Part shown: positions 1 to 17,708 of the stretch, piece after piece
How positions within the stretch are numbered: the stretch's first letter is position 1
How the letters are laid out: each line of letters begins with the position of its first letter
Virus record (IMG/VR): IMGVR_UViG_2706794691_000004
Source of the DNA: a virus
Lineage: Duplodnaviria; Heunggongvirae; Uroviricota; Caudoviricetes
Strand: one strand, 5' to 3'
DNA: 17,708 nucleotides
Notes under the pieces: generated by a model
Database searches by the model: none
Told to the model about the DNA's origin: nothing
What the model saw: only the letters and a program-made list of their open reading frames with translations
Made by a program: the position numbers and the translations under genes

Positions 1-919
1 ACTGGCCGATGACATACAGCGCCCATTTGTCCACATCCGCCGCACCAAGACGTTTCCCCATGCCGTAGCGCGGGTGGGTCAGCATATCCCACAGACACCA
101 GGCCATGTTGTTGCTGTATGCTGGTTTTAACGTTCCGTCCCAGATACCGCTGTATTGTCGCGTCTGCGGGTTATAGTTCGACGGCACCTGCAGAATGCGC
201 CCGCGAAGATGATAATTACGACTCACCTGCTGGCTGCCGAACTGCTCCGAGTCCACCTGTACGCCGACCAGTGCAGTGTTCGGGTAGCACTGTTTCACAT
301 CGATGATTTCGGTGTATGACGACCAGAGCGTTTTGTTCTGCAGCTGGTCTGTGGTGCTGTCCGGTGTCATCCTGCGCATCCGGATACTGAACGGGCGCGG
401 AGGCAGGTTATCCACCACCACCGAGACCAGATACTGCGAGGTGGTTTTGCCCTTAATGGTGATGTCTTTTTCCGTCACCCAGCCACCGTTACGCTGTATC
501 TGAACCAGCAGGCGGACTTCCGACGGATTCCTGTCTCCCTTTGAGGTGGTTTCCACCAGTGCCTGTACACCGAAGGTAAAGCGCAGACGGTCGATGTTTG
601 CCGACGTGATGGTCCGGGTGATCGGCGTGTCATATTTCACTTCCGTACCCAGCACCGTCTCGGAGCCGGAGGATTCAAACCCCTCCGGCGGTGACTGCTC
701 CTGCTCACCTGCCCGGAACACCACCGTGACGCCGGAGATGTTGGTATTCCCCTCATTGTCCAGCACCGGCGTACTGTTCAGCAGCACGCTTTTTAATCCA
801 TCCACCGGACCTTCAACCGGCCCTTCGCTGATGGCATCGATCACACTCAGCAGCTGCGTGGACTTCAGGTTGTCCTTCGCTTCGCGCGGGGTATGCCCCT
901 TACTGCTGCCTTTACCCAT
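1..919 (-). CDS. J: Tail tip / host-specificity protein J, N-terminal ~306 codons (continues beyond window start)
   Basis: Minus-strand ATG at 919-917 translates to MGKGSSK... and runs open to the window edge ending ...NNMAWCLWDMLTHPRYGMGKRLGAADVDKWALYVIGQ; matches the lambda gpJ N-terminus as I recall it. Not in the ORF track because every plus-frame ORF here is antisense. Confidence 0.9.
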   Translation of the reverse strand, partial: MGKGSSKGHTPREAKDNLKSTQLLSVIDAISEGPVEGPVDGLKSVLLNSTPVLDNEGNTNISGVTVVFRAGEQEQSPPEGFESSGSETVLGTEVKYDTPITRTITSANIDRLRFTFGVQALVETTSKGDRNPSEVRLLVQIQRNGGWVTEKDITIKGKTTSQYLVSVVVDNLPPRPFSIRMRRMTPDSTTDQLQNKTLWSSYTEIIDVKQCYPNTALVGVQVDSEQFGSQQVSRNYHLRGRILQVPSNYNPQTRQYSGIWDGTLKPAYSNNMAWCLWDMLTHPRYGMGKRLGAADVDKWALYVIGQ

Positions 920-941
920 TCCTCACGCTCCATAAACGACA

Positions 942-962
942 AAACCGCCCGCAGGCGGTTTC
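942..962 (-). other. Stem-loop in the I-J spacer (AAACCGCC-UGCG-GGCGGUUU on the mRNA, followed by a U-rich run)
   Basis: Inverted repeat read directly; sits in the 60-nt gap between the I stop (980) and the J start (919). I believe the same hairpin exists in lambda. Confidence 0.4.
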
Positions 963-979
963 TCATAAAACATTTTGCA

Positions 980-1627
980 TCAGCGACCAATCACCACAAC
1001 CTGACCACCATCCCCTTCGTCTGCCGTGCTGATCTCCTGAGAAACCACACGTGACCCCACGCGCATTTCCCCGTACAGAACAGGCAGAACATTACCCTGG
1101 GCAACCATGTTATCCAGTGACGAGAAATACGTGTTCTGTTTGCCGTTATCTGTACTGGCTGCCGTGGGCGTCCTGGCTTTCGGTGCCAGCATCTGCGCCA
1201 CACCACCCAGGATCATACTGGCCCCTGCTGCATACATACCCGATACAGCCGCGGCCCCCAGCCAGCCCACAGGGTTCCACCATGCCACCGCAATCAGCGC
1301 CGCACCCAGCACCGCCTGAAACACACCGCCACTTTTGGCACCCGCCAGACGCGGAACGATGTGGATCACGGCACCATTTGCCAGCGGTTCATTAAGACGG
1401 GCAGATAATTCATTTTCGCCTGCATCACGCCCGGCAATGCGCACCTGATACCAGCCGTCGCTCAGTTTCTGACGAAATGCCGGGAGCTGTGTGGCCAGTG
1501 CCCGGATGGCTTCGGCCCCCGTTTTCACACGAAGGTCGATGCGGCGGCCAAATCGCTGCAAATCCCCGTAAAGGCAGATGCGTGCCATGCCCGGTGACGC
1601 CAGAGGGAGTGTGTGCGTCGCTGCCAT
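980..1627 (-). CDS. I: Tail tip assembly protein I
   Basis: 215-aa ORF MAATHTLPLASPGMARICLYGDLQRFGRR...VVVIGR; near-identical to lambda gpI as recalled; start overlaps the 3' end of K by 103 nt. Confidence 0.9.
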   Translation of the reverse strand: MAATHTLPLASPGMARICLYGDLQRFGRRIDLRVKTGAEAIRALATQLPAFRQKLSDGWYQVRIAGRDAGENELSARLNEPLANGAVIHIVPRLAGAKSGGVFQAVLGAALIAVAWWNPVGWLGAAAVSGMYAAGASMILGGVAQMLAPKARTPTAASTDNGKQNTYFSSLDNMVAQGNVLPVLYGEMRVGSRVVSQEISTADEGDGGQVVVIGR

Positions 1628-2268
1628 TTGTCGGTGTACCTCTCTCGTTTGCTCAGTTGTTCAGGAATATGGTGCAGCAGCTCGCCGTCACCACAGTAAA
1701 TGGCGGCATGATTCGGCACCGATGAACCAAAGCAGCACAGCAGCACATCGCCCGGCTGCGCCGTTGACAACGGCACCTGATACAGCCCTGTAGCCTCCAG
1801 ATTATCCAGATAGAGATTCTGACCATTACGCCACCAGTCGTCCTCACGATGAAAATCTGGCATCTCAATTCCCGCCAGATGGTAAGCGTCCCGGAACAGC
1901 GTGTAACAGTCCGTCACCCCGTGCTCAAAGCGCCGCCCGGTGAGATGCGGCACACAGCGGAACTTATGAATCGCCCCCCGGCAGACCAGCCACCACGGCA
2001 AATCACTCTGCACCTGCAGCCGCCGGTCGGCCTCACTCAGCCAGGGCAGACCACCGGGGTGGCTGTGGACCAGCGCCACAATCTCACCCTGCATCTCTGC
2101 CTGCAGCCAGTCCTCCGGAGCCATCCGGAAATACTCCTCCGGCTCACCGGAAATATTCACGCAGGGAAAATATCTTTCCCCCTCCGGCGTTCTCACCACG
2201 AAGCCGCACGACTCCGCTGGCGCACATCGCCGGGCGTGCGCCAGAATCGCTGATTCTGTCTCTGTCAT
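1525..2268 (-). CDS. K: Tail tip assembly protein K (JAMM/MPN metalloprotease-like domain plus NlpC/P60-like Cys-His domain)
   Basis: Start taken at MTETESAIL (2268), 4 nt after the L stop. JAMM-like motif HSHPGGLPWLSEAD; C-terminal GVTDCYTLF...HAAIY resembles NlpC/P60. An alternative internal start at M49 (2124, MAPEDW) would give 199 aa. Confidence 0.85.
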   Translation of the reverse strand: MTETESAILAHARRCAPAESCGFVVRTPEGERYFPCVNISGEPEEYFRMAPEDWLQAEMQGEIVALVHSHPGGLPWLSEADRRLQVQSDLPWWLVCRGAIHKFRCVPHLTGRRFEHGVTDCYTLFRDAYHLAGIEMPDFHREDDWWRNGQNLYLDNLEATGLYQVPLSTAQPGDVLLCCFGSSVPNHAAIYCGDGELLHHIPEQLSKRERYTDKWQRRTHSLWRHRAWHASAFTGICSDLAAASTFV

Positions 2269-2272
2269 GGGA

Positions 2273-2971
2273 TTACTGCGAAAGTTTGTTAATGGAAAGG
2301 AAGCCGCCAAAGTTGCCGACGTTATTGCGGAACTTACAACCGCTCAGGCATTTGCTGCATTTATCCTTCGTGATATCGGACGTTGGCTGGTCATATTCAT
2401 CCGCGACAGCCGGACCGTGATAACCGCACTCATCACCGCGATAGGTCCAGGTGCAGGTATTAGCAAGCATGATGCGCCCCGGAAAAACAGCGCCGTCCGT
2501 TTCCGTCGGCGTGGACAGTACAAAGGAGGCACTGACCGCGCTCAGTTCGCTGCACTGCTCAATACGCCAGCGGCTGATCACCTCCTGCTCCGGATCGGCG
2601 TCACTGTTTCCGTTGACGAAGTTCACCGCATCCAGAAAACGGGCGTAAACCTTACGCCTGACCACCGTTCCGCCGACCAGACTCTGCAGGTCTTCCGCCA
2701 TCCCGGTGACCATGCCGTGCAGATTAGAGACTTTCAGCGTTGGCCTTGCACTGGCACCTTTGCCGTTCATCTCAAATCCACTCCCCTGAATGGGATAGGC
2801 CTGATACTGCCGACTCTGCCAGGTGACAGACTCTCCTTTCTCGTTCTGCTCATTGCAGAAAAAGTAGCGATCCCCGCCTACCTCGGTCAGGTCGATTTCC
2901 CAGAGCACCACGCTGGCCGACTGCTCCGCACGAATGCATTCATTCAGCGTTTCCTGTTGTATGTCCTGCAT
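2273..2971 (-). CDS. L: Tail tip protein L
   Basis: 232-aa ORF MQDIQQETLNECIRAEQSASVVLWEIDL...; lambda gpL-like as recalled; its ATG overlaps the TGA of the upstream M-like gene by 1 nt. Confidence 0.9.
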   Translation of the reverse strand: MQDIQQETLNECIRAEQSASVVLWEIDLTEVGGDRYFFCNEQNEKGESVTWQSRQYQAYPIQGSGFEMNGKGASARPTLKVSNLHGMVTGMAEDLQSLVGGTVVRRKVYARFLDAVNFVNGNSDADPEQEVISRWRIEQCSELSAVSASFVLSTPTETDGAVFPGRIMLANTCTWTYRGDECGYHGPAVADEYDQPTSDITKDKCSKCLSGCKFRNNVGNFGGFLSINKLSQ

Positions 2972-3267
2972 CAGATCACCACTTCGTCAAACTGACACGA
3001 AAAATCGGTATAGGTGATATGTTCTGTCGCTGACCACGTTCGACACACCACTCTGATTTTTCTGTTAATACCCGGCGGGCGCCAAAAAAAAGATTTATAG
3101 CCTTCATGCCGGGCTAAAAATTTTTCAAATGAATCACGTTCATTCGCCTCAACTTTGAAATCACAGGTGAAAACGCGCAGAGAATGATTAAGTCCATTTG
3201 GACTTCGTTGCTCATAACCATCACCAAATCTTACAGTTTTTATCGATGGTTTATTTTCTGTTTTCAT
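2971..3267 (-). CDS. Tail tip protein M-like (divergent from lambda M)
   Basis: Start chosen at MKTENKPSIKTVRFGDGYEQ (ATG 3267, preceded by GAGGA); the track's longer ORF begins at a GTG at 3309 that overlaps the tape measure stop. Shares the VRFGDGY...KSF.W.PP pattern and a ...EVV C-terminus with lambda gpM as recalled, but is clearly diverged. Confidence 0.7.
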   Translation of the reverse strand: MKTENKPSIKTVRFGDGYEQRSPNGLNHSLRVFTCDFKVEANERDSFEKFLARHEGYKSFFWRPPGINRKIRVVCRTWSATEHITYTDFSCQFDEVVI

Positions 3268-3301
3268 TCCATCCTCTGGTAACCAGTGAAATTCTTCCGT
3301 A

Positions 3302-6300
3302 TTAGCCACTTAACATTCCCCCATCACGTCGCATATTTAACAGATTGCCCTGCACCCGCTGATCAACCATCCCCATAAGTGCTTTTATTGCCTGAGGGCC
3401 AATCTCTCCATTCTGGCCGTCATTTTGAATAGTGATTTGGTATACAGGGGCATAGGTAATATCTCCGCCTCCATTACCACTTTTACTATTAATAGCTCTG
3501 ACACCAAGAGAACCATCGGAAGTTCGTGTTAATGGCATAATGGCTTCCGGTCCAGCCTCACCAAAAACACCAGCCCCTTTTGCAAAAGCAAAAAATTGCG
3601 GGGAATCATAAATACCGTTCGAATACGTGCTCAATGACGGAGACTCATAAACACCGCCCTTTGCATTCGGAATAAATTTACTAATAGCACTCCCGATAGT
3701 TCCTAAAATCCCCCCAGAAGAACTGTTACTAATGCTGTCGAAAATCCCAGTAATTGAAGCCTTTAATGCTATTCGACTAAGATCCGAAATCACGGAAGTA
3801 GCGAAAGAACGAAAATTTGCCTTGCCTGTCGTGACAAAATCACCCAGCGCATCGGTCATCCCATCAAACATCTGAGTCGTGGTTGATTTTATCTGCTCAC
3901 TGATATCCTTAGTGTCATCCAGCCAGTTATTGAATCCCTGGGAGGCACCACTAACCCAGTCTCCTGCCTGAATATCGAGCTGCTCGTTTTTCTGTCTGAC
4001 AATTTCTTTTTCCCGTTCCAGAGCATCATTCAGAGCCTGCATTTTCTCTTGAAAAACATGATCTGACATTCCACGGGATTTATCTGCATAGTCACGTTCA
4101 AGTTGCAGACGCTGATTGTTATATCCATGTTCAATCCGCAGTAATTCCTGCTGGCGNNNNNNNNNNNNNNNNNNNNNNNNNNNNNNNNNNNNNNNNNNNN
4201 NNNNNNNNNNNNNNNNNNNNNNNNNNNNNNNNNNNNNNNNNNNNNNNNNNNNNNNNNNNNNNNNNNNNNNNNNNNNNNNNNNNNNNNNNNNNNNNNNNNN
4301 NNNNNNNNNNNNNNNNNNNNNNNNNNNNNNNNNNNNNNNNNNNNNNNNNNNNNNNNNNNNNNNNNNNNNNNNNNNNNNNNNNNNNNNNNNNNNNNNNNNN
4401 NNNNNNNNNNNCCACTTAACCAGTTCCTGTTCAGAGGAACTTAATTTAACGGTCAACTCAGCTTGTGAACTTAGTAACGCATTCTGTTGATTCAGATGAT
4501 CAATCATTCGTTGGGCTGCATCATCAGAATAACCTTTCGCCTTTGGTTGCTTTGGATCTTTATAACGCTCATTTATTTGAGCGATAAGATTATTATATTC
4601 TTCCTTTGAATACTGATTCTTTAGCTTTTCCAGTTTTGCAAGTTCACTAGCTCTCTGCTGCTCCCGGGTCTGATATTGTTTTGAAAAGGCATCTGCTCTC
4701 TGTCTGAGTTCAATTCCTTCCTGTTGTCGCTTGTTGTAATCGTTTATTGATGAATTTAGTACGTCCTGAGCAATTTTTTCTGCTTGAAGTACGCCCAATT
4801 GCTGCTTTAATCGTGCCAGCCTTTTATTTTGAGCTCCGCCATCTCCAATGCCACCTAACCCGAAAACTCCGGGTCGGGTATTTTTTTCTATTTCATCAAT
4901 TTGACGGAGAACATCTGAGATTTTTTGATCAAGGGAGGCCTCACGGCCAATATCCAGCATGGAATCCCATGCCCATTTTGCGGAGTCTGCGACAGCTTTC
5001 CATGCAGTCTCAAGATAACCAAGATTTTCTTTAATCTGGTTGGTGCGCTGGATCATTGAGGATGAGTATTCTTCTGTCGCAATGCGGGCGGCCTCCTGCT
5101 GGTTCCCTTCATCCTGTAGCGCCTTAATCTGGTTATAAGTCGCAAGTGTCAGAAAATGGTACTGATCATTAAGTTTTGATATGGCACTGACAGGATCCTT
5201 TGCAATTTCATTGAAGTCATTAACCAGTTGTTCGGTTGATATTCCTGTTACTTCGCTCGTTTTTACTATCGCTGTCGTCACTTGCTCCAGCGAACTGCTC
5301 GCTACCTTTCCCGAACGCACAAGCTGATTTAATACTGCCGCCGCAGCACCAGTTGTCGAATCAGCCGCATTCCCGGCACGTTGAGCTATATCGCCCAATT
5401 GCCCGCTGGTTGTCCCCAACTGATTTCCGGTAAGAATAAGAGATTTATTAAATTCGTCCTGCTCCTGAGAGCCTTTATAGTAAGCCAGTCCTAAGACCCC
5501 AACGGCTGCTGCGGCCAGGGTAAAAGGATTAATTAATCCCAGCACATAAGAACCTACACCTTTGATCGCCGGGCCAATCCCACCGAACATATCTTTTAGC
5601 TGGCCGCCCTGCTGCATTAACACCATAAATGGCGACTGACCAGTGGACAACCCAACAACAATATCCGTCATTTGTACAGGCAACATGCGCATAGCAAAAG
5701 CCGTTTGTTTTGCCGACATTCCGGTTTTGCTTAATTGTGATTGAGTAACCTCAAGCTCACTCCGCATAGCACGAAGTTTTCCAGAAAGCTCCTCATACAT
5801 TTCAGGAGAAAGCATCCCCTTAGCTTTTGCTTCATTGAGCTGTTTCTGTTGTTCTACCAGACGATTAAAAGCAGTTCCGACAGGATCAAGTTGAGCAATC
5901 AGACGTTGCAAAGCAACAACCTGTTCATCATGCGCTTTTGCTGCTTCTCGCTCTGCCTGAGCCTCTCCGGTAAGCTCTCGCCGTGTTTCCTGTATTTTTC
6001 GGCTATAATTCTCAAACTGAGAACCATTTATTTTCCCGGATGCAAACGCAGCATTAAGTTCATCATGCTGTTGTTCAAGATTTCTTAGCGCCGCAGCCAG
6101 AGGGTCGATCTTGTCCAGCATTCTTTGAAAGGCCTGAGCCTGCGCTTNNNNNNNNNNNNNNNNNNNNNNNNNNNNNNNNNNNNNNNNNNNNNNNNNNNNN
6201 NNNNNNNNNNNNNNNNNNNNNNNNNNNNNNNNNNNNNNNNNNNNNNNNNNNNNNNNNNNNNNNNNNNNNNNNNNNNNNNNNNNNNNNNNNNNNNNNNNNN

Positions 6301-6555
6301 NNNNNNNNNNNNNNNNNNNNNNNNNNNNNNNNNNNNNNNNNNNNNNNNNNNNNNNNNNNNNNNNNNNNNNNNNNNNNNNNNNNNNNNNNNNNNNNNNNNN
6401 NNNNNNNNTGTTGCCTTAGTCACTTTCCCTGCGCTATTTGCAGCAGTTTCCCCAGCCTGCGTCATTTTGACTAATGAGGAGGTCAGATTGTCAGCATTAT
6501 TTTTCGCTCCAGTGCTATCAATAATTATTGCGAGACGCGAGGTTTGCTCTGCCAT
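3302..6555 (-). CDS. Tail tape measure protein (about 1080 aa, interrupted by two N runs)
   Basis: ATG at 6555 preceded by AGGAG; N-terminus [14 protein letters not shown]...; [37 protein letters not shown] matches the conserved lambda gpH N-terminal motif as recalled; long Q/E/K-rich coiled-coil middle; C-terminus ...[38 protein letters not shown] resembles the lambda gpH C-terminus. Frames on either side of the N run at 6148..6408 differ. Confidence 0.85.
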
Positions 6556-6573
6556 TTATTAAAACTCCTGACA

Positions 6574-6600
6574 ACAAAAAACCCACCGCGAAGTGGGTTT
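6574..6600 (-). terminator. Intrinsic-terminator-like hairpin immediately upstream of the tape measure RBS
   Basis: mRNA reads AAACCCAC-UUCGCG-GUGGGUUU followed by UUUUGUUGUC, then AGGAG and the tape measure ATG. Confidence 0.5.
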
Positions 6601-6720
6601 CAGGCGACATAATAGTAGATATAGCGATTACGAGGCCACGCAATGCTTTTCTCCAGGAGCATCATCGATTTAATTAAAGACACCATCACATCTCTGTAAC
6701 AGAGTGTACGTAATTAACAA

Positions 6721-7478
6721 CTACACACACTGCTCCTGAAAATACTGGTCATCCAGTGCAAAGATCACTGCTTCAAATTCATCGCGCTCAATCAATACCG
6801 GATGAGTGGCTAAATATTCATTTATCTCTGTCAGAGATAAAGGCAAAGGCACCCCAGCCATTCCAGCATAACGTCGGGCACGGGATATTACCGAATAGGC
6901 GTACAACAACTCCTTAAGCACCGGGTCTATTTCTGGTTCCGGTATCGGTGGCAACCTGAGTTTTTCTCGCTTCCATCTTGCCTTTTCCCCCCTTTCTCCC
7001 CCGAACTCCGATAACCACCGCTGGGCAGCTATGGCTTTTTTATCGTATCCTGCTTCTGCTGCTCTTTACCCTGGGCGATGCTGGCTGCTTCTGCAAGGAT
7101 CTGCCAGTACAACTCTGGATTCTGCTTAAGCAGCGCGATCCCTCGTTCTGCCGTATATTCCAGTGCAACCTCAACACCATTAACCAGTTCACCAACCCCT
7201 TTCCAGTCTTTCAGCAGATAACGAGCGGCATTATCAATGAGTAAATCATCAACAGAATCCACCTCGGAAACCTTTGAAATATCAAACTCCTTCGTTCCGA
7301 CGTGCAAACTGGCATCCATTTTCTCAATGTGGCGACGGATTAATGCATTACGGGAGCGATACTGATCGTTATCGCTGCTTGCCACCAACAGTTTTAACCC
7401 GTCTACAGGTTTTAAGTCCTTCATTGGCGTAAACCAGCGTTCTCCACCAATGATAATTTTCTGATTAAGAATAAACAT
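6721..7478 (-). CDS. Tail assembly chaperone G-T fusion product made by programmed -1 frameshift
   Basis: The -1 frame relative to G is open from the slippery site to a TAG at 6721-6723, encoding ...KK/AIAAQRWLSEFGGERGEKARWKREKLRLPPIPEPEIDPVLKELLYAYSVISRARRYAGMAGVPLPLSLTEINEYLATHPVLIERDEFEAVIFALDDQYFQEQCV; position between major tail and tape measure genes matches the conserved G/G-T arrangement. Confidence 0.7.
7029..7478 (-). CDS. Tail assembly chaperone (lambda G analogue)
   Basis: Start at MFILNQKIIIGGERWF (ATG 7478, GAGGT 5 nt upstream); acidic ~149-aa protein; stop TAG at 7029-7031. Confidence 0.75.
   Translation of the reverse strand: MFILNQKIIIGGERWFTPMKDLKPVDGLKLLVASSDNDQYRSRNALIRRHIEKMDASLHVGTKEFDISKVSEVDSVDDLLIDNAARYLLKDWKGVGELVNGVEVALEYTAERGIALLKQNPELYWQILAEAASIAQGKEQQKQDTIKKP
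7035..7041 (-). other. Slippery heptamer A_AAA_AAG for the -1 ribosomal frameshift, two codons before the G stop
   Basis: mRNA reads ...GAU ACG AUA AAA AAG CCA UAG; the heptamer is the same class as the E. coli dnaX shift site. Confidence 0.65.
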
Positions 7479-7538
7479 CCATAACCTCATTCAATGCGTC
7501 CCCCTGTAGGGCAGTACCACAGGAGGAATAACGGAAAA

Positions 7539-8301
7539 TCAACTAATCGCCTCAGCACTGGCTTTTGCGATCACGGCAGCCGGGGAATTTTTTTTTCTGG
7601 TTATCGTAGGTGCTTCATCTGCTGCGGTAATGCTCAATTGAACCTGGATAATGTCGCTATTACCCCCATCAGGCCATTCACCTGACACCTGAACCTTCGG
7701 GAAACTGAAAGTGTATGCCCCCTCTCCATTCGAAAGCGTGAAGCTGAACGGAACTGTTTCTCCAGTCAGTGTTTTACTCCAGATTTCCCACGCGGCTTTA
7801 GACCATGANNNNNNNNNNNNNNNNNNNNNNNNNNNNNNNNNNNNNNNNNNNNNNNNNNNNNNNNNNNNNNNNNNNNNNNNNNNNNNNNNNNNNNNNNNNN
7901 NNNNNNNNNNNNNNNNNNNNNNNNNNNNNNNNNNNNNNNNNNNNNNNNNNNNNNNNNNNNNNNNNNNNNNNNNNNNNNNNNNNNNNNNNNNNNNNNNNNN
8001 NNNNNNNNNNNNNNNNNNNNNNNNNNNNNNNNNNNNNNNNNNNNNNNNNNNNNNNNNNNNNNNNNNNNNNNNNTTGACCCCAGCGAAATTTGGTACCAAC
8101 ATCACCGCCGACATCCACAGTGCCAGGCGTCGCCCCCTGAGCCATCCGGGAGCCACCAATCTCATTATTTTCGCCTTTATTCTGGGTGGGTTTTACTCCC
8201 CAGCTTGTGCGTTTTAATAAACTCCAGTCACCACTTGCTGGCGTAGTGCCTGCAACCGTCTCCCGGATAAATGCCGAGATAACCTTTGCACCTGAACTCA
8301 C
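7539..8301 (-). CDS. Major tail (tube) protein, interrupted by an N run
   Basis: GTG start at 8301 with AGGAGG 6 nt upstream (MSSGAKVISAFIRETVAGTT...); C-terminal segment ...FSFTLSNGEGAYTFSFPKVQVSGEWPDGGNSDIIQVQLSITAADEAPTI; located directly upstream of the chaperone gene. Frames differ across the N run at 7809..8073. Confidence 0.7.
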
Positions 8302-8327
8302 AGGAGCCTCCTATGTCATTAATTGCG

Positions 8328-8720
8328 CTAGAGCGCGCGATATGGAATTTGAAGATTAAGCTGGAACCAGCCATTCTTTTCGCCAACGGCTATTGAGGAA
8401 ACAGCCTGGTAACTGAGACGATCGTCATCCTGAAACTCAAACAGTTCCCGCAATTTATCGGCTGTCTCAGTAATGAGTTTTGAACCAGAACCTGCGGGGA
8501 CAAATAACTGAATAATGATTATCCCCGTGCGATAAACAACCGGCCCCGCGCCAATTTCATTAACTCCAGCCTGCCCGGGAATATTACTTAACCGCGCCCA
8601 GATTAACTTACCGGAAGGATCGAACGTTGGCCCGTTCGGATACAATACGTCTTTTCCATCAATAATCGTCTGTGCCGTCATTCTGGAAATAACCGTATTT
8701 CTGATTTCAGTAAACTTCAT
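8328..8720 (-). CDS. Tail terminator / tail completion protein (gpU-like size and position)
   Basis: 130-aa ORF MKFTEIRNTVISRMTAQTII...; directly upstream of the major tail gene; ATGA start/stop overlap with the preceding gene. Confidence 0.5.
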   Translation of the reverse strand: MKFTEIRNTVISRMTAQTIIDGKDVLYPNGPTFDPSGKLIWARLSNIPGQAGVNEIGAGPVVYRTGIIIIQLFVPAGSGSKLITETADKLRELFEFQDDDRLSYQAVSSIAVGEKNGWFQLNLQIPYRAL

Positions 8721-9097
8721 TTGTAAGCCTGTAAAACACCATGAAAAGCGTTGGCATACACGCCAGTTGGCGCTTGTTGTGAATGACCGTTTTCAAGAGC
8801 CTCTGCATAAGGAAGGTTATTCTGGATATAAATAACCCCGTAATTTGCAGCTTTCGAAATAACCCCGATCCCACGCTGAACAGCAATCGTACCGTTCGGA
8901 TCCACGTTATCAGATATACCAAAATCGGGATGCTGTAACGACACCAGGTTGTTATTTCTGAAACGTCCGGTATCAACCGGAGCAGCAATATCAATAGCAG
9001 TAAGAATCTGCATAGCGATGTAGCGAATCTTCAGCCCTACATCTTCCTCAATCATCCCGGCAAATATTGACGGTTCTATATCCCATGCCTTTGCCAT
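8717..9097 (-). CDS. Head-tail connector protein, HK97 gp10-like family
   Basis: 126-aa ORF with APVDTGRFRNN motif that I associate with the HK97 gp10 family; translationally coupled on both sides. Confidence 0.55.
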   Translation of the reverse strand: MAKAWDIEPSIFAGMIEEDVGLKIRYIAMQILTAIDIAAPVDTGRFRNNNLVSLQHPDFGISDNVDPNGTIAVQRGIGVISKAANYGVIYIQNNLPYAEALENGHSQQAPTGVYANAFHGVLQAYK

Positions 9098-9481
9098 TTA
9101 CGCTCTCCTTAACTGGATAGAGTAAACTGATGCGGAAGGATCTACACTTGCTGTAATTACCTCGTATCGTTGTAACTGCCTTGATACAGGATCATAAATC
9201 TCAATAATATGGTCGACAGCTGGTTTATCCGTAACCTCGCATACCAGAGCGGTTAATTTAAGGTCACCATGCAAAATATTAATCCCATCAATTCTGCCCA
9301 GCTTATAACGTGTCAACACGCCTCGCCCGGTATAGATTGCGGTTGATTCGCCGCCAGTTTCCGTCACAGGATCCCAGTGCCGGTGCGTAACGTAAGAACC
9401 AGAAAAATCACTCACGGCGTCCGCTAAATCCTCATCAAAAGCAGCGGCAACCTCTGACTGAATCTCTTCACGAAGCCCCAT
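9098..9481 (-). CDS. Head-tail connector / head closure protein (family uncertain)
   Basis: 127-aa ORF MGLREEIQSEVAAAFDEDLADAVSDF...; GAGGGGGG RBS; sits between other connector genes. Confidence 0.45.
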   Translation of the reverse strand: MGLREEIQSEVAAAFDEDLADAVSDFSGSYVTHRHWDPVTETGGESTAIYTGRGVLTRYKLGRIDGINILHGDLKLTALVCEVTDKPAVDHIIEIYDPVSRQLQRYEVITASVDPSASVYSIQLRRA

Positions 9482-9491
9482 TATCCCCCCC

Positions 9492-9803
9492 TCACAACCC
9501 TGACTTGTGAGCGACTAAGTCCGTACGGNNNNNNNNNNNNNNNNNNNNNNNNNNNNNNNNNNNNNNNNNNNNNNNNNNNNNNNNNNNNNNNNNNNNNNNN
9601 NNNNNNNNNNNNNNNNNNNNNNNNNNNNNNNNNNNNNNNNNNNNNNNNNNNNNNNNNNNNNNNNNNNNNNNNNNNNNNNNNNNNNNNNNNNNNNNNNNNN
9701 NNNNNNNNNNNNNNNNNNNNNNNNNNNNNNNNNNNNNNNNNNNNNNNNNNNNNNNNNNNNNNNNNNNNNNNNNNNNNNNNNNNNNNNNNNNNNNAGTGAT
9801 CAT
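9492..9803 (-). CDS. Probable head-tail adaptor, almost entirely masked
   Basis: ATG at 9803 preceded by GGAG; only MIT... and ...RTDLVAHKSGL are readable; rest is N (9529..9794). Confidence 0.3.
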   Translation of the reverse strand: MITXXXXXXXXXXXXXXXXXXXXXXXXXXXXXXXXXXXXXXXXXXXXXXXXXXXXXXXXXXXXXXXXXXXXXXXXXXXXXXXXXXXXXXXXXRTDLVAHKSGL

Positions 9804-13248: not shown

Positions 13249-14658
13249 TGATTTCCATCAGCATTACACTCTGATTTTTTAATTCATCGATCACTTCCTC
13301 TGGACGGGAATCCTGATCGATAAATTTCAACGCCTGCAACACCCGAACCGCATCAATCTGACGTATATCACCGCCCTGACGCAATGACTGAACAGCCAGC
13401 GCGGAGGATGAGTCAAACACCTGGGCAGATACATCCAGTTCAGTGCGCACATCCACATTGCCACCGCAACTCTCTCCGATCCATTCCGCCATTATCTGGA
13501 GAATATTATCGAGGGCATCTTCGAGGGAGTTCGCCATTGTATAAAGCGGCGAGTTTTCCTGCATTCGCTCTTCATTAGTCTGATCAACAGATTTGGTGGA
13601 TGTATTTTCAGCACGCAGNNNNNNNNNNNNNNNNNNNNNNNNNNNNNNNNNNNNNNNNNNNNNNNNNNNNNNNNNNNNNNNNNNNNNNNNNNNNNNNNNN
13701 NNNNNNNNNNNNNNNNNNNNNNNNNNNNNNNNNNNNNNNNNNNNNNNNNNNNNNNNNNNNNNNNNNNNNNNNNNNNNNNNNNNNNNNNNNNNNNNNNNNN
13801 NNNNNNNNNNNNNNNNNNNNNNNNNNNNNNNNNNNNNNNNNNNNNNNNNNNNNNNNNNNNNNNNNNNNNNNNNNNNNNNNNNNNNNNNNNAGATTAAGCA
13901 ATGGCGGTGTACCACGCATAAATCCTGTTTTCTTCGTGTACAGTGTTACCAGAGGAATATCATCACGGCTGGTATTCCATGACTCATGAAGCGTCCAGAC
14001 AGATTNNNNNNNNNNNNNNNNNNNNNNNNNNNNNNNNNNNNNNNNNNNNNNNNNNNNNNNNNNNNNNNNNNNNNNNNNNNNNNNNNNNNNNNNNNNNNNN
14101 NNNNNNNNNNNNNNNNNNNNNNNNNNNNNNNNNNNNNNNNNNNNNNNNNNNNNNNNNNNNNNNNNNNNNNNNNNNNNNNNNNNNNNNNNNNNNNNNNNNN
14201 NNNNNNNNNNNNNNNNNNNNNNNNNNNNNNNNNNNNNNNNNNNNNNNNNNNNNNNNNNNNTCTTTCATATCCGTTCGTGGATAGTCCACCAGCGCATGTG
14301 CCACACCATACTGAAATGCGAGGCTGAAAAATTGCTGCGCCCACACATCCAGTCGGCTCCCCTCCATGTCGATATTTTCTGCATATTCCCTGATTTTTGC
14401 CGGCGTTTCCTCACTCAATACTGTCGGCTCTGCAAATATGCGCCCAATATTTTGCTTGATGCTTTCTTCATACACAGGAAGTAGCGTAGCCACAGACAGG
14501 CGTTTTTTATAAGCGTCTTCATCTTCGTTAGGCCATTTTGGGAGATAATTTTCCCCCTGCCTGCGCATTTCAAGCGTACCGCCCATCAGTGCGTCGTTAA
14601 TATCCCACGCCTCCAGCATATCGTTATAGTCGAGGTTGGGTGTTGATATATCAGCCAT
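13229..14658 (-). CDS. Portal protein (interrupted by two N runs)
   Basis: ATG at 14658, 2 nt after the large terminase stop; N-terminus MADISTPNLDYNDMLEAWDINDALMGGTLEMRRQGENYLPKW...; about 475 aa; canonical position after the large terminase. Confidence 0.65.
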
Positions 14659-14660
14659 AA

Positions 14661-15971
14661 TTAAATCCGAAGTGATGTGACTCTTCCGGTCGGTTTGACA
14701 ATAGGGAATTGCTTAACGATGAAATAACCTCCGGCATCATTCGGGTGATCATTGCCAGATTTTTTATCAGGCTCCCCCTTCTCATCCCAGACCTGTTGCT
14801 CCAGAGATTCGGCATATAACGGGCAACGCTTCACATTAACTTTATAGCGACGCTCACCATTGGCATTGCAGAACATTGCATTCATTGAGTTAACGCGATC
14901 TTTTACTGGCGGGTTCGAGCTGTTCACCACAACGTTAAAACCAGCCTGCTTAAGCTGGGCTATATCCGTCGTACTTGCGTTACTTGATTTTCTGGAATCC
15001 CCGGAAGCATCTGGATAAATATAAATTTCCCTCACTTTCCGGTAATCATTCCCATCATACAGCCAGAAGCGTTCTTTAATGATGCGGATCATATCCGGCG
15101 TATCGTAGGCATTGATGATTTCAGTTACCGCACATGGAAGCCCCAAACGCAGCACATGGACGATTCCCGCCATCTTTCCAACGTTAAAATCCATCCCAAT
15201 ATAAATCGGCTCCCCTGGCTGCTCCACTTCTTCGCAATTATTCAGTTTCCGGTCAAACTGATGGTAAACAGTACCACTTGTCAGGTTAGTAAACTGTCCT
15301 CGAAGATAGGCTTTAATCAGCTCTGGAGGGTATGATTCAAGAAGCGAAGGAATGTAATCTGCTGGCAGGTTCTTTTCATTATCGAAAGTAGATGCCTGCA
15401 CCAGACCATACAGTGAGGCCAGCTCTGTTTTTTCACGCACGGCTTTAACAAACTGCTCGTAGACAAATTTGAATCCTTCCGGCGTGGTTGTAACGTCAAT
15501 ACCGTTGCGAAGTCCATCAATCTTATAACGCATACGTGCAATTATCTTGCGCCACGCCGTTCTGGCTTTTTCCTTCGGCAAAATGTCCAGTTCATCCACC
15601 AACGCATTACCAATTTTGAAACCGACGATCGTTTGTGGCTTCTCCATCGATCTGCAGATAGTGGTTCCCCGATACTGGCGTCCGTAATAAAAGTGAACCT
15701 CTTTATTTCCCTCATTAATTTTTACGTTCAATCCCCAGTCAGCAGCAACTTCTTCCACTGTAGGGTAAAAAATATCGCGAATTTGGGGATACGTTGGCGC
15801 AAAATATCCCTGATTTATACCTGGATGCTCCCAAATCCCCTTGCATATGCCGCCACACCCAACCCATGTTTTGCCCGAGCCAAAACCAGCAATATAGGCT
15901 TTAAATTTATGGGGCATTGAAAGAAATCGCGCCTGAGGCACATTAAGCGTCGGAGAGATCATCTTCATCAC
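14661..15971 (-). CDS. Terminase large subunit
   Basis: 436-aa ORF with Walker A AYIAGFGSGKT near the N-terminus and acidic motifs (VDELD; YIYPDASGD) consistent with ATPase and nuclease domains. Confidence 0.85.
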   Translation of the reverse strand: MMKMISPTLNVPQARFLSMPHKFKAYIAGFGSGKTWVGCGGICKGIWEHPGINQGYFAPTYPQIRDIFYPTVEEVAADWGLNVKINEGNKEVHFYYGRQYRGTTICRSMEKPQTIVGFKIGNALVDELDILPKEKARTAWRKIIARMRYKIDGLRNGIDVTTTPEGFKFVYEQFVKAVREKTELASLYGLVQASTFDNEKNLPADYIPSLLESYPPELIKAYLRGQFTNLTSGTVYHQFDRKLNNCEEVEQPGEPIYIGMDFNVGKMAGIVHVLRLGLPCAVTEIINAYDTPDMIRIIKERFWLYDGNDYRKVREIYIYPDASGDSRKSSNASTTDIAQLKQAGFNVVVNSSNPPVKDRVNSMNAMFCNANGERRYKVNVKRCPLYAESLEQQVWDEKGEPDKKSGNDHPNDAGGYFIVKQFPIVKPTGRVTSLRI

Positions 15972-17044
15972 TCCTTACTCTGGCATCAACCACATTAATA
16001 TTGATCGCCACAGGCTGGGGATGTTCATTATCTTCCACCGTTTCGATCTCTTTGCGCAGCTTCTGGTTTTCCATTCTGCGCCGTTCAATTTCCAGTTCCC
16101 GTAGCCGCTTATCTGCACATAAAGCCCCGCCAGCAGAAAACAAACGCAACAATTCACGCCGGGCGGCAGCCTTATCCTCCAGCAGGATCTCAACGCCGAA
16201 TTTTCCGAATTTTGCCCCTGCATATAATTGCCGCGCATCCCCATCAAGCAGAGTGGTATCAGCCATATAAAGCTGTCCCGTTCCCTCACCGCAGCACTTC
16301 GGGCAGTCCGGATTGGGTATGGCGTTATCAACAAAGCCGAGGCCTCCATATTCCGGTTCGGGTTTGCCATCTCTGGAAGCCTGCGCCGCTGCCTTGTCGA
16401 ATTCTGCTATATCGCGCCACTGGTAGAGATGATTCTCGCCCCAGCAATAACGGCAGTTAACACGGCGAAATTGTGCAAGCTGATTGGGGTCGGCCAGGAC
16501 AATAGCCATCAACTGACTCACTAGTAAATCCAGGTCTGCGGTATAGCGTTTCTGGTACTGATTGCGGAAGTAGCTGANNNNNNNNNNNNNNNNNNNNNNN
16601 NNNNNNNNNNNNNNNNNNNNNNNNNNNNNNNNNNNNNNNNNNNNNNNNNNNNNNNNNNNNNNNNNNNNNNNNNNNNNNNNNNNNNNNNNNNNNNNNNNNN
16701 NNNNNNNNNNNNNNNNNNNNNNNNNNNNNNNNNNNNNNNNNNNNNNNNNNNNNNNNNNNNNNNNNNNNNNNNNNNNNNNNNNNNNNNNNNNNNNNNNNNN
16801 NNNNNNNNNNNNNNNNNNNNNNNNNNNNNNNNNNNTGTGCAGTCTGCGCAGATTTTTTCTGCGCACTTTTTTGCGCAGTTTTGCACATTTCTGTCTGCGC
16901 ATTTTTCGGAGTTTTTTTGATGTAACGACGGGCTGTTGCGTAATTCAGTCCCCTTGCTTCACACCATGCCACCGGAGATATACCGGAGCGGGTGTATTCA
17001 GCAATATACTCCTGCTGCAACGCCCCCCAGTCCGGTCTGCTCAT
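15943..17044 (-). CDS. Terminase small subunit (N-terminal HTH segment plus Cys-rich C-terminal segment; may be two genes)
   Basis: N-terminus MSRPDWGALQQEYIAEYTRSGISPVAWCEARGLNYATARRYIKK resembles a small-terminase HTH; after the N run the ORF encodes CRYCW...DCPKCCGEG and a basic coiled tail ...RLRELEIERRRMENQKLRKEIE, overlapping the large terminase start. Frames differ across the N run at 16578..16835. Confidence 0.55.
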
Positions 17045-17047
17045 CAG

Positions 17048-17708
17048 TTAGTCCTGATTTTTATCCACCCTGAGTAGTTCGCGCAGAGCAAAGGCATCCC
17101 CTTTTCTGGCAAGCTTAAACAATGCCGCTCGTAACTCGGCTNNNNNNNNNNNNNNNNNNNNNNNNNNNNNNNNNNNNNNNNNNNNNNNNNNNNNNNNNNN
17201 NNNNNNNNNNNNNNNNNNNNNNNNNNNNNNNNNNNNNNNNNNNNNNNNNNNNNNNNNNNNNNNNNNNNNNNNNNNNNNNNNNNNNNNNNNNNNNNNNNNN
17301 NNNNNNNNNNNNNNNNNNNNNNNNNNNNNNNNNNNNNNNNNNNNNNNNNNNNNNNNNNNNNNNNNNNNNNNNNNNNNNNNNNNNNNNNNNNNNNNNNNNN
17401 NNNNNNNNNNNNNNNNNNGACTGGCACCCATAAGTGAGATTTTTACGCACGACGGCGCATACATGACGGAGTAAAAACTTTTAACGTAGGTTCCGGAATC
17501 CAGATACAGCTCGGTCATTCCGCCGCTGTTTTTCTGCGTCTGTTTCTGCCCTAACTGGACAGCACCGATCGTCATAAACAATTCACCACAGCGACCGAGA
17601 TTCGTGTACGTATTCACATCCTCGTTAATGCGCCCCATGAATGAGAACGGTCGATCAACCGAACAGATAAAGCTGTTCATTGCCTTGCGTTTCACCCACG
17701 AAGCATGG
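17048..17708 (-). CDS. Hypothetical protein upstream of the small terminase, function unassigned
   Basis: Minus-strand ORF; the track's start at 17695 is a GTG and the frame is still open at the window edge, so the gene may begin outside the window; readable part ...KRKAMNSFICSVDRPFSFMGRINEDVNTYTNLGRCGELFMTIGAVQLGQ...; stop is 1 nt before the small terminase ATG; contains the N run 17142..17418. Confidence 0.4.
   Translation of the reverse strand, partial: HASWVKRKAMNSFICSVDRPFSFMGRINEDVNTYTNLGRCGELFMTIGAVQLGQKQTQKNSGGMTELYLDSGTYVKSFYSVMYAPSCVKISLMGASXXXXXXXXXXXXXXXXXXXXXXXXXXXXXXXXXXXXXXXXXXXXXXXXXXXXXXXXXXXXXXXXXXXXXXXXXXXXXXXXXXXXXXXXXXXXXAELRAALFKLARKGDAFALRELLRVDKNQD

Follow-up and report, generated by a model that had tools for sequence, protein, structure and literature searches.

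The tip genes of phage lambda form the cassette H-M-L-K-I-J. In the lambda tail, the gpM ring joins the gpV tube to the gpL/gpJ ring, and the C-terminal helix of gpH lies on the gpI tripod (PMC10721106). Recombination between lambda and the Rac prophage at 88% identity, via Red-beta or RecA, has been shown experimentally (De Paepe et al. 2014, PMC3945230). This lambda-Rac exchange is the same process as the one proposed below for genes L, K, I and J, but that study used the stf/tfa region of the defective Rac of strain K-12, not the M/L border or L-K-I-J. The K-12 Rac prophage is cryptic, with the head genes and everything from the middle of the tape measure through J lost, whereas full-sized Rac-like prophages have also been described (PMC5917428). 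Klebsiella phage 5 LV-2017 and Erwinia phage Gungnir39 are relatives of the Rac-type head and shaft which carry another tip.

The stretch of DNA analysed here (17,708 nt, hereafter the window) represents the late (virion) region of a lambdoid E. coli prophage that is intact and of the Rac type. All its genes are located on the - strand. Positions 7380-5601 are 99.8-100% identical to the ydaY-ynaA segment of K-12 Rac (100% in 7380-6409 and 99.8% in 6147-5601, i.e. near-identity in both ydaY and ynaA/tmpR). The best complete match was NCTC9082, 99.8% identical to the window, whose copy has the Rac neighbourhood of rrrD, trkG, ynaK, ydaY, lom, stf and tfaR. This neighbourhood, with trkG and ynaK upstream and lom, stf and tfaR downstream, and the chromosomal site near ompN/uspF are seen in the NCTC9082 copy and in K-12; the window stops within J on one side and within the terminase region on the other, so that its own flanks lie outside it. 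Compared with K-12 Rac, the window represents the intact form, and the joint between M and L described below is absent from K-12 because the segment from the tape-measure middle through J was lost there. Eight runs of N interrupt the window, with lengths that do not match the real sequence. The GC figures for window 1-2970, M, the tape measure and the region farther right were computed with N excluded; deep GC dips were rejected as sequence features, as they are produced by these eight runs.

Tail genes on both sides of the M/L border

To the left of the border, the window encodes a lambda-type tip. The 5' part of gene J (1..919, residues 1-306; the gene leaves the window), for the central tail fibre or tip attachment protein, has a translation beginning MGKGSSKGHTPREAK; it is 97.4% identical to lambda J at the amino acid level and matches Pfam FNIII-A_GpJ (E 2.4e-42). 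It is followed by gene I (980..1627; tail tip plug/assembly protein, Pfam Lambda_tail_I, E 3.3e-24), gene K (1525..2268; tail assembly protein with Pfam Prok-JAB and NLPC_P60 domains) and gene L (2273..2971; hub protein, Pfam Phage_tail_L, E 1.4e-98). K is 96.5% identical to lambda K over the 199 annotated residues of the latter, and L is 94.0% identical to its lambda counterpart in amino acids and 91.8% in nucleotides, with a GC content of 55.4%. The initial annotation had called J, I, K and L near-identical to lambda; this applies to J, K and L (94-97% amino acid identity), but not to gene I, at only 79.4%, nor to the nucleotide level, at only 91%. Nucleotide identity to lambda is high over the whole L-K-I-J block, with lower patches at 2687-2886 and 1151-1450. 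The latter patch lies inside gene I, is only 52-68% identical to lambda and differs by 19-25% among Rac-type prophages; gene I is itself mosaic.

Gene M (2971..3309), for the distal tail protein ring, belongs to the lambda gpM family, on a branch that is divergent and low in GC. The gene begins with GTG, overlapping the tape-measure stop by 8 nt, and its own stop overlaps the L start as TGATG, the A at 2971 being shared, just as in lambda, where the gene order is also the same. M matched PF05939 (Phage_min_tail) over the whole profile (1-108 of 108; E 1.2e-31, 109.8 bits against a gathering cut-off of 39), as well as the lambda gpM chain 8iyk_M (E 2e-25, residues 6-111 against 3-108). By analogy with lambda, M would assemble into a hexameric ring flanked by the tube and the gpL/gpJ ring. 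M, described at the outset as only distantly lambda-M-like, shares 41.9% of its amino acids with lambda M. When one genome per species was searched for the native host of this low-GC lineage, close M sequences were found only in S. flexneri and E. ruysiae (97-99%), the next being at most 45% identical; in the phage collection, no M relative fell between 99% and 50%.

The tape measure is also of the gpH family (TMP_2, E 1.4e-81, and Tape_meas_lam_C; BLASTP to lambda H 28% identity over 854 columns, E 7e-77). Nucleotide similarity to lambda H was absent, with no blastn match right of 2993, and its GC3 is 0.38, in contrast to the GC-rich lambda H. Two parts can be distinguished. The 3' third (3302..4324, residues ~738-1077; the upper end falls within the N run 4157-4411 and was mapped through NCTC9082) is of lambda-H type, with Tape_meas_lam_C at residues 858-932 (E 3.9e-26) and a match to lambda gpH 8iyk_H (E 1.9e-20). 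Neither Klebsiella phage 5 LV-2017 nor Erwinia phage Gungnir39 has a tape measure similar to this part. The 5' two thirds (4325..6555, residues 1-737, with the N runs 4157-4411 and 6148-6408) contain TMP_2 and TMP_4 domains and are 43% identical over 819 columns to the Klebsiella phage tape measure; the TMP_2 part is 30% identical to lambda H. K-12 ynaA is a remnant of these 5' two thirds.

Farther right are the tail assembly chaperone gene ydaY with its -1 frame (6721..7490; PHROG 313, E 1e-37) and the tail tube gene (7539..8301; Phage_tube_2 family, Pfam PF18906, E 9.4e-32). The ydaY gene proper (7029-7490) is 100% identical to K-12 Rac ydaY; as read from the sequence, a slippery site A_AAA_AAG lies at 7038-7044, with the -1 frame open to 6721. 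The tube protein has no sequence similarity to lambda V and is about 70% identical to the tubes of the Klebsiella and Erwinia phages; the N run 7809-8073 within its gene stands for 465 nt in NCTC9082. Like the tube, the head proteins and, by sequence, the chaperone are of families other than those of lambda. The initial label "non-lambda" is wrong in kind for M and the tape measure, which fall within the lambda M and H families, on a divergent branch.

For Klebsiella phage 5 LV-2017, amino acid identity to the window is 37-88% across the terminase, portal, minor head protein, scaffold, connectors, tail terminator, tube and chaperone and the first ~737 tape-measure residues. Erwinia phage Gungnir39 possesses the same module at lower identity (32-78%), its capsid protein being without a match. 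Both differ from the window in that their tape measures lack Tape_meas_lam_C and are followed by a 154-aa protein, a DUF1833 protein, a 126-aa protein and a tail protein of ~920-1016 aa; neither phage has homologues of M, L, K or I. A second, deeper joint is located inside the tape measure, near residue 737. That the tape-measure C-terminus is lambda-H-like, consistent with keeping the interface to the tip, had been proposed before, and the phages with the same head and shaft, a non-lambda tip and no such domain argue for it more strongly than the proposal itself did.

Position and nature of the joint

Several steps coincide at the M/L border. Similarity to lambda (blastn, word size 7) is confined to window 1-2993, corresponding to lambda 13407-16423, with 91.1% nucleotide identity over 3021 columns. 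In sliding windows, identity falls from 82-96% to ~48% at ~2990, and a forced alignment right of 2993 stays at ~48%, which equals background. The max-chi-square breakpoint was 2993 against lambda and 3457 against C. sedlakii; those for E. coli comparators were discarded because of alignment end gaps. As for composition, GC is 57.7% in window 1-2970, 40.7% in M, 44.8% in the tape measure and 47-49% farther right. A single-step maximum likelihood model placed the change point at 2933 (57.9% against 44.2%), with a likelihood reached by none of 300 block shuffles. GC3 drops likewise, from 0.665 in L, 0.677 in K and 0.60 in I to 0.336 in M. Both steps, in identity (2993) and in composition (2933), are abrupt and coincide, as expected of a recombination junction. 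A mosaic joint at or beside the M/L border, as anticipated by the initial annotation together with its GC-rich left and AT-richer right side, is thus supported.

Relative to lambda, the crossover interval can be set at 2932..2993 (no strand) from the variant pattern, the end of lambda similarity and the GC change point. In the alignment, variants of the Rac lineage extend down to 2957 in the window, and lambda variants occur from 2932 leftward. For other E. coli lambdoid prophages, the match begins exactly at 2993 in most cases and at 2982, 2974 or 2923 in some. Uniform nucleotide identity to one reference phage across 1..9500 had been suggested as evidence against a joint. Such uniformity formally exists towards NCTC9082 (99.8%) and Salmonella phage SPF_0923 (97.7%), but this test was badly posed, because both belong to the same mosaic family and possess the same joint.

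The eight N runs, whose lengths are not true to the real sequence, might raise the suspicion that the joint is an assembly chimera or a masking artefact. This can practically be dismissed, as all the runs are more than 1100 nt away from the joint, and the joint is present in 716 complete genomes as well as in records of induced or isolated phages.

A joint would also be superfluous if there had been no recombination and L, K, I and J merely evolved more slowly than M and the tape measure. In line with this, L is 78-80% identical in amino acids among lambda, C. sedlakii and a metagenome lineage, whereas M is 40% identical between lambda and that lineage, so a protein-level step is present even in a low-GC relative. 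Nevertheless, we regard this reading as highly improbable, since the step in the window is a nucleotide and synonymous one (92% nucleotide identity against background, and the GC3 values of L and M given above). Moreover, the metagenome contig L004, whose M and tape-measure 3' end are 83% and 87% identical to those of the window in amino acids, demonstrates that an L protein of ~80% identity can be encoded at 44% GC; its gene L is equally distant (72% nucleotide identity) from window L and from lambda L. The composition of lambda is, by contrast, uniform across these genes (58.8% GC in the H 3' end, 55.8% in M, 55.7% in L, 59.6% in K and 59.2% in I), unlike that of the Rac-type element, in which L-K-I-J alone are GC-rich. 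Alternative arrangements do exist, namely a low-GC L beside this M lineage (L004), a GC-rich M beside the same L (lambda) and this shaft combined with a different tip (Klebsiella and Erwinia phages). This shows that L-K-I-J were derived from a GC-rich lambda-like late region and adjoin an M of different descent.

Pairwise identity alone cannot prove the direction of such a transfer, and Rac-type prophages are very common in E. coli, so L-K-I-J might instead be native to the Rac-type phage, with lambda-like phages as recipients. We consider this very unlikely: the GC of the block equals that of H, M and the left arm in lambda, while in the Rac-type element it exceeds that of the adjoining genes by 10-15 points, and the Klebsiella and Erwinia relatives of the Rac-type head and shaft have another tip.

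Chi sites were rejected as a cause of the joint: the single Chi sequence (GCTGGTGG) in the window is at 14286, far from the joint and at chance level. Between 2300 and 3900, there were two promoter-like sites (shuffle mean 2.0) and three terminator-like sites (1.2 +/- 1.0 in shuffles), none of either kind at the joint, and no Rfam family matched anywhere in the window.

The conserved island at the M stop and L start

A short island, AGTTTGACGAAGTGGTGATCTGATGCAGGACAT (2961..2993, - strand), spans the M stop and L start, and its conservation extends to lambda, C. sedlakii and the metagenome relatives. It contains the codons for the M C-terminal FDEVVI, a Shine-Dalgarno-like GTGGTGA and the overlapping TGATG; outside the island, M is about 52% identical to lambda M in nucleotides. 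Among 76 distinct gpM homologues, the last 15 nt had the consensus GAGGAGGTGGTGGCA, and a Shine-Dalgarno-like motif was present at most 24 nt from the stop in 41, against 3 of the 76 in a control window. Judging from these motifs, the island appears to carry the ribosome-binding site of L. Its similarity in all lineages appears to arise from a double role, as coding sequence for the C-terminus of M (FxEVV) and as ribosome-binding site and start for L; these roles would explain its conservation. The island provides microhomology at the border.

Spread of the joint and a model of tip exchange

The joint is inherited and widespread, and not an event private to the genome of the window. Of 5426 complete E. 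coli genomes, about 716 carry the segment spanning it, and 712-721 the segment of M and the tape-measure 3' end, 671 of these at 99% identity or more. The same joint is present in S. flexneri, E. ruysiae and GenBank records of induced or isolated phages. Evidence for recurrent exchange comes from seven aligned Rac-type prophages (pairwise and diversity profiles) and from summary counts. Across these seven, identity is usually 99-100% in M and the 3' end of the tape measure, and L-K-I-J vary as far as the border itself: nucleotide diversity rises from 0.3-3.6% on the M side to 12-14% within the first 200 nt of L. From the nearly clonal M side and the polymorphic L-K-I-J, the border looks like a homology edge for repeated exchange with other lambdoid prophages. 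The L 5' alleles of Rac-type prophages (S. flexneri and E. ruysiae left out) are 83-91% identical, as distant from each other as from lambda, and all are GC-rich.

One may ask whether a single ancient join, by illegitimate or microhomology-based recombination, followed by vertical descent could account for these data, the polymorphism on the left being old divergence of sublineages. The joint indeed occupies the same position in essentially all carriers, its frequency matches that of the M module (716 against 712-721), it recurs in S. flexneri and E. ruysiae, and the prophage of K56-43 is divergent on both sides (3.7% on the M side, i.e. not strictly clonal). Vertical descent would, however, lead us to expect similar divergence on both sides of the joint. 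Instead, EcPNK004 and strain 1943 match the window at 99.7-99.9% across the 1157 nt to the right of the joint and differ from it by 6-8% on the left; EcPNK004 has a single difference among the 1157 nt to the right of 2993, compared with 246 among the 2993 nt to the left (Fisher p 1e-34). Furthermore, prophages sharing the same M differ by 9-30% in the first 200 nt of L. A single join thus seems unlikely as the whole explanation, even though the higher diversity of L-K-I-J could come partly from a few old allelic lineages and not from ongoing exchange.

The explanation that we favour, and hold to be probable, is a tail of three layers in which recurrent exchange has kept the joint at 2932-2993 as a homology edge. 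According to this model, layer A, from the terminase to tape-measure residue ~737, would have the type seen in Klebsiella phage 5 LV-2017 and Erwinia Gungnir39; layer B, the C-terminal third of the tape measure together with M, would represent the divergent low-GC branch of the lambda H/M families; and layer C would be the GC-rich, lambda-type L-K-I-J (about 91% nucleotide identity), the joint studied here being that between B and C. Tracts of L-K-I-J would be replaced repeatedly by homologous recombination, through RecA or Rad52-type recombinases (Red-beta or Rac's own RecT). Such replacement would continue because other lambdoid prophages in the same genomes carry tip genes 85-95% identical to L-K-I-J, and the tracts presumably stop by about 2993 since the partner prophages offer no nucleotide homologue of M or the tape measure. 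The first join, or exchange between diverged lineages, could have used the ~33-nt island; illegitimate recombination, with whole genes then selected, could also account for the first join. By analogy with the lambda tail, where the gpM ring faces the tube on one side and the gpL/gpJ ring on the other, the border may be a structural interface too, with M kept with the shaft and L-K-I-J moving as a single hub unit.

A bolder reading would take the tape-measure C-terminal third and M as a portable adaptor mounting a lambda-type hub on an unrelated tube, with the island as the preferred crossover point at which whole tips are swapped between tails that share no other homology. We regard it as doubtful; if true, it would provide a naturally maintained "linker" like those once postulated for phage modules.

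Taken as it stands, the joint is real but ordinary, a product of widely inherited phage gene shuffling, and belongs to known biology, not to a new kind of system. It nevertheless offers a clean and quantifiable case of how lambdoid prophages are built from modules, in which the border between exchanged and non-exchanged DNA falls on a gene boundary and, by the analogy above, probably on an interface of tail protein rings. It could aid the annotation of Rac-type prophages, and it shows what K-12 Rac has lost. Being a natural and tolerated joint, the M/L border may also guide the choice of swap points in host-range engineering.

Identity and composition at the M/L border

All genes of the window are on the minus strand, and ascending window coordinates run from 3' to 5' with respect to them. 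At the low-coordinate end lie codons 1-306 of J (1-919), followed by I (980-1627), K (1525-2268), L (2273-2971), M (2971-3309) and a tape measure gene of 1077 codons (3302-6555). At higher coordinates lie the chaperone gene ydaY and then a gene for a Phage_tube_2-type tube, followed by the tail terminator and connectors; a P22-type capsid protein, scaffold, minor head protein, portal and terminase are encoded at the high-coordinate end. The M stop overlaps the L start in TGATG.

The border between M and L is a recombination joint: steps in identity and composition coincide there, and comparators show alternative arrangements. Amino acid identity to lambda was 97.4% for J (residues 1-306), 96.5% for K, 94.0% for L, 79.4% for I and 41.9% for M. 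With sensitive blastn, the nucleotide match to lambda was limited to 1-2993 (91.1%), and in a forced alignment identity was 82-96% up to ~2990 and about 48% beyond. Base-level alignment to lambda showed the switch about 22 nt ahead of the M stop, and informative sites narrowed the crossover relative to lambda to 2957-2932, within a wider bracket of 2993-2932. With N excluded, GC content was 57.7% left of 2970; M had 40.7% and the tape measure gene 44.8%. The best single GC change point lay at 2933, its likelihood being equalled in none of 300 block shuffles, and GC3 was half as high in M (0.336) as in L (0.665).

In lambda itself, GC lies at 56-60% in the 3' end of H and in each of the genes M, L, K and I, a uniformity which indicates that the block is at home there. 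The M lineage also occurs with a low-GC L of its own. This is the case in the metagenome contig L004, whose M and tape-measure 3' end are 83% and 87% identical to those of the window at the amino acid level, and whose L has 44% GC and is 72% identical at the nucleotide level both to lambda L and to the L of the window; the L protein therefore does not force high GC.

The coincident steps, together with the arrangements in lambda and L004, uphold the recombination junction that the initial annotation had proposed at or near the M/L boundary, and the composition step it had noted there, with some corrections. The description of the tip as near-identical to lambda is apt for J, K and L, but not for gene I or at the nucleotide level. 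Similarly, M and the tape measure had been called non-lambda; they do lie outside the recently shared lambda block, but both passed the gpM and gpH family tests.

Within gene I, a patch at 1151-1450 was only 52-68% identical to lambda at the nucleotide level. No other stretch is as polymorphic among Rac-type prophages (diversity 19-25%), and the patch represents a second, smaller mosaic patch within the lambda-type block. Opposite gene L, a 242-codon antisense open frame was observed at 2267-2995 (+), which most likely arises as a side effect of the GC-rich coding strand.

The window contains eight N runs of 255-277 bases each (4157-4411, 6148-6408, 7809-8073, 9529-9794, 13619-13890, 14006-14260, 16578-16835 and 17142-17418), which cause false GC dips in the raw profile. 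Their lengths do not correspond to the hidden sequence: by comparison with E. coli NCTC9082, for example, one run of 265 N takes the place of 465 nt of the tube gene, and another of 266 N that of 339 nt. Coordinates and reading frames across the runs are therefore unreliable.

Rac-type prophages and the persistence of the joint

The source of the window is an intact Rac-type prophage, and the element belongs to a known Rac-like prophage group. Its best match was found in E. coli NCTC9082 (99.8% identity), where the region is flanked by rrrD-trkG-ynaK and lom-stf-tfaR. The cryptic Rac prophage of E. coli K-12 (L091 15630-17389) keeps only window 7380-5601, at 99.8-100% identity, which comprises ydaY and the first third of the tape measure gene (remnant ynaA). 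Its head genes have been deleted, along with all of the region between the middle of the tape measure gene and J, J included, and the joint has therefore been lost from K-12. M was at least 99% identical in 10 phage-collection records, and the best phage-collection DNA matches covered 68-92% of window 1-9500 at 97-98% identity. The initial annotation had regarded uniform identity to one reference phage over the whole of 1-9500 as speaking against a junction; such identity is formally found, but only because the references share the same mosaic family.

The segment comprising M and the tape-measure 3' end was present in 712-721 of 5426 complete E. coli genomes (in 671 at 99% identity or more), and the joint-spanning segment in 716 of the 5426; the same joint was found in S. 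flexneri and E. ruysiae. It has been inherited, and it forms a lasting edge. When seven Rac-type prophages were aligned, the pattern of variation was not the same on its two sides. EcPNK004, for example, has 1 difference from the window across the 1157 sites right of 2993, and 246 across the 2993 sites to the left. Diversity per 100 nt was 0.3-3.6% on the M side and 12-14% over the initial 200 nt of L; it was 2-9% farther into L-K-I-J and reached 19-25% in part of gene I. The L 5' alleles found beside one same M were 9-17% apart, all of them GC-rich. In other E. coli lambdoid prophages, the match to the window starts exactly at 2993, in a few cases at 2982, 2974 or 2923.

From these sequence comparisons we infer, as the simplest reading, that L-K-I-J would have been exchanged repeatedly with other resident lambdoid prophages by homologous recombination, the M/L border being the point where homology would run out. 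Lambda recombines with Rac at 88% identity via Red-beta or RecA (PMC3945230).

Tape measure and further joints

Counterparts of the head and shaft genes of the window occur in Klebsiella phage 5 LV-2017 (37-88% amino acid identity per gene) and Erwinia phage Gungnir39. The tip of these phages is different and includes a DUF1833 protein and a tail protein of 920-1016 aa; no homologue of M, L, K or I was found in either phage, nor was Tape_meas_lam_C found in their tape measures. Residues 1-737 of the Rac-type tape measure aligned with that of Klebsiella phage 5 LV-2017 (43%) and none beyond, residues 738-1077 being of lambda H type and without counterpart in that phage. It follows from this split that the C-terminal third of the tape measure is linked to the type of tip. 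A lambda-H-like C-terminus tied to the tip had already been suggested from the sequence, and is now supported more strongly, as shaft relatives with another tip lack Tape_meas_lam_C. The corresponding older joint inside the tape measure gene falls at about window 4324, under the N run 4157-4411 (~17357 in L002).

Another joint, near window 3457, was detected in Citrobacter sedlakii (L003 9800-10339). There, the last ~57 tape-measure residues (81-84% amino acid identity) and M (75%) are Rac-like, and the tape-measure middle is unrelated to the Rac type. M and the extreme C-terminus of the tape measure appear to move as a unit.

Upstream of the tape measure gene, an A_AAA_AAG slippery heptamer is located at 7038-7044 (-), 7 nt ahead of the ydaY stop, and the -1 frame stays open for ~105 further codons, to 6721. 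Such an arrangement resembles the G/GT-type frameshift that is usual in tail assembly chaperones, as judged from the sequence; at this locus, RefSeq annotates ydaY alone. A strong terminator-like hairpin, AAACCCAC ttcgcg GTGGGTTTTTTTG, lies at ~6575-6605 (-), in the gap that separates the chaperone region from the tape measure gene, which starts at 6555. Since the equivalent gap in C. sedlakii contains six extra genes (KilA-N, Arc-like, P22_AR_N, ANT and others), the gap looks like an accessory-gene insertion site.

The M/L island and tail architecture

An island of ~33 nt (2961-2993), formed by the last codons of M, its stop and the first codons of L, is conserved in lambda, C. sedlakii and metagenome relatives, the remainder of M being only about 52% identical to lambda at the nucleotide level. 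Across 76 distinct gpM homologues, drawn from many genera, conservation at the 3' end of the M gene is highest in the last 15 nt, whose consensus is GAGGAGGTGGTGGCA (FEEVVA). A Shine-Dalgarno-like motif was present no more than 24 nt from the stop in 41 of the 76, compared with 3 of 76 in a control window. The C-terminal codons of M thus appear to double as a putative ribosome-binding site of L, a dual role that would explain the conservation of the island. The island would also supply microhomology at the M/L border, its use by crossovers being putative.

In lambda, the gpM hexamer has one face on the tube and the other on the gpL/gpJ ring, and the C-terminal helix of gpH rests on the gpI tripod (PMC10721106). 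By analogy, the M/L border would match a structural interface of the tail. That the tape-measure C-terminus and M constitute an adaptor cassette, with the M/L island as a preferred swap point, seems to us rather improbable. Mosaicism of this sort is well known among lambdoid phages and is nothing new in kind.
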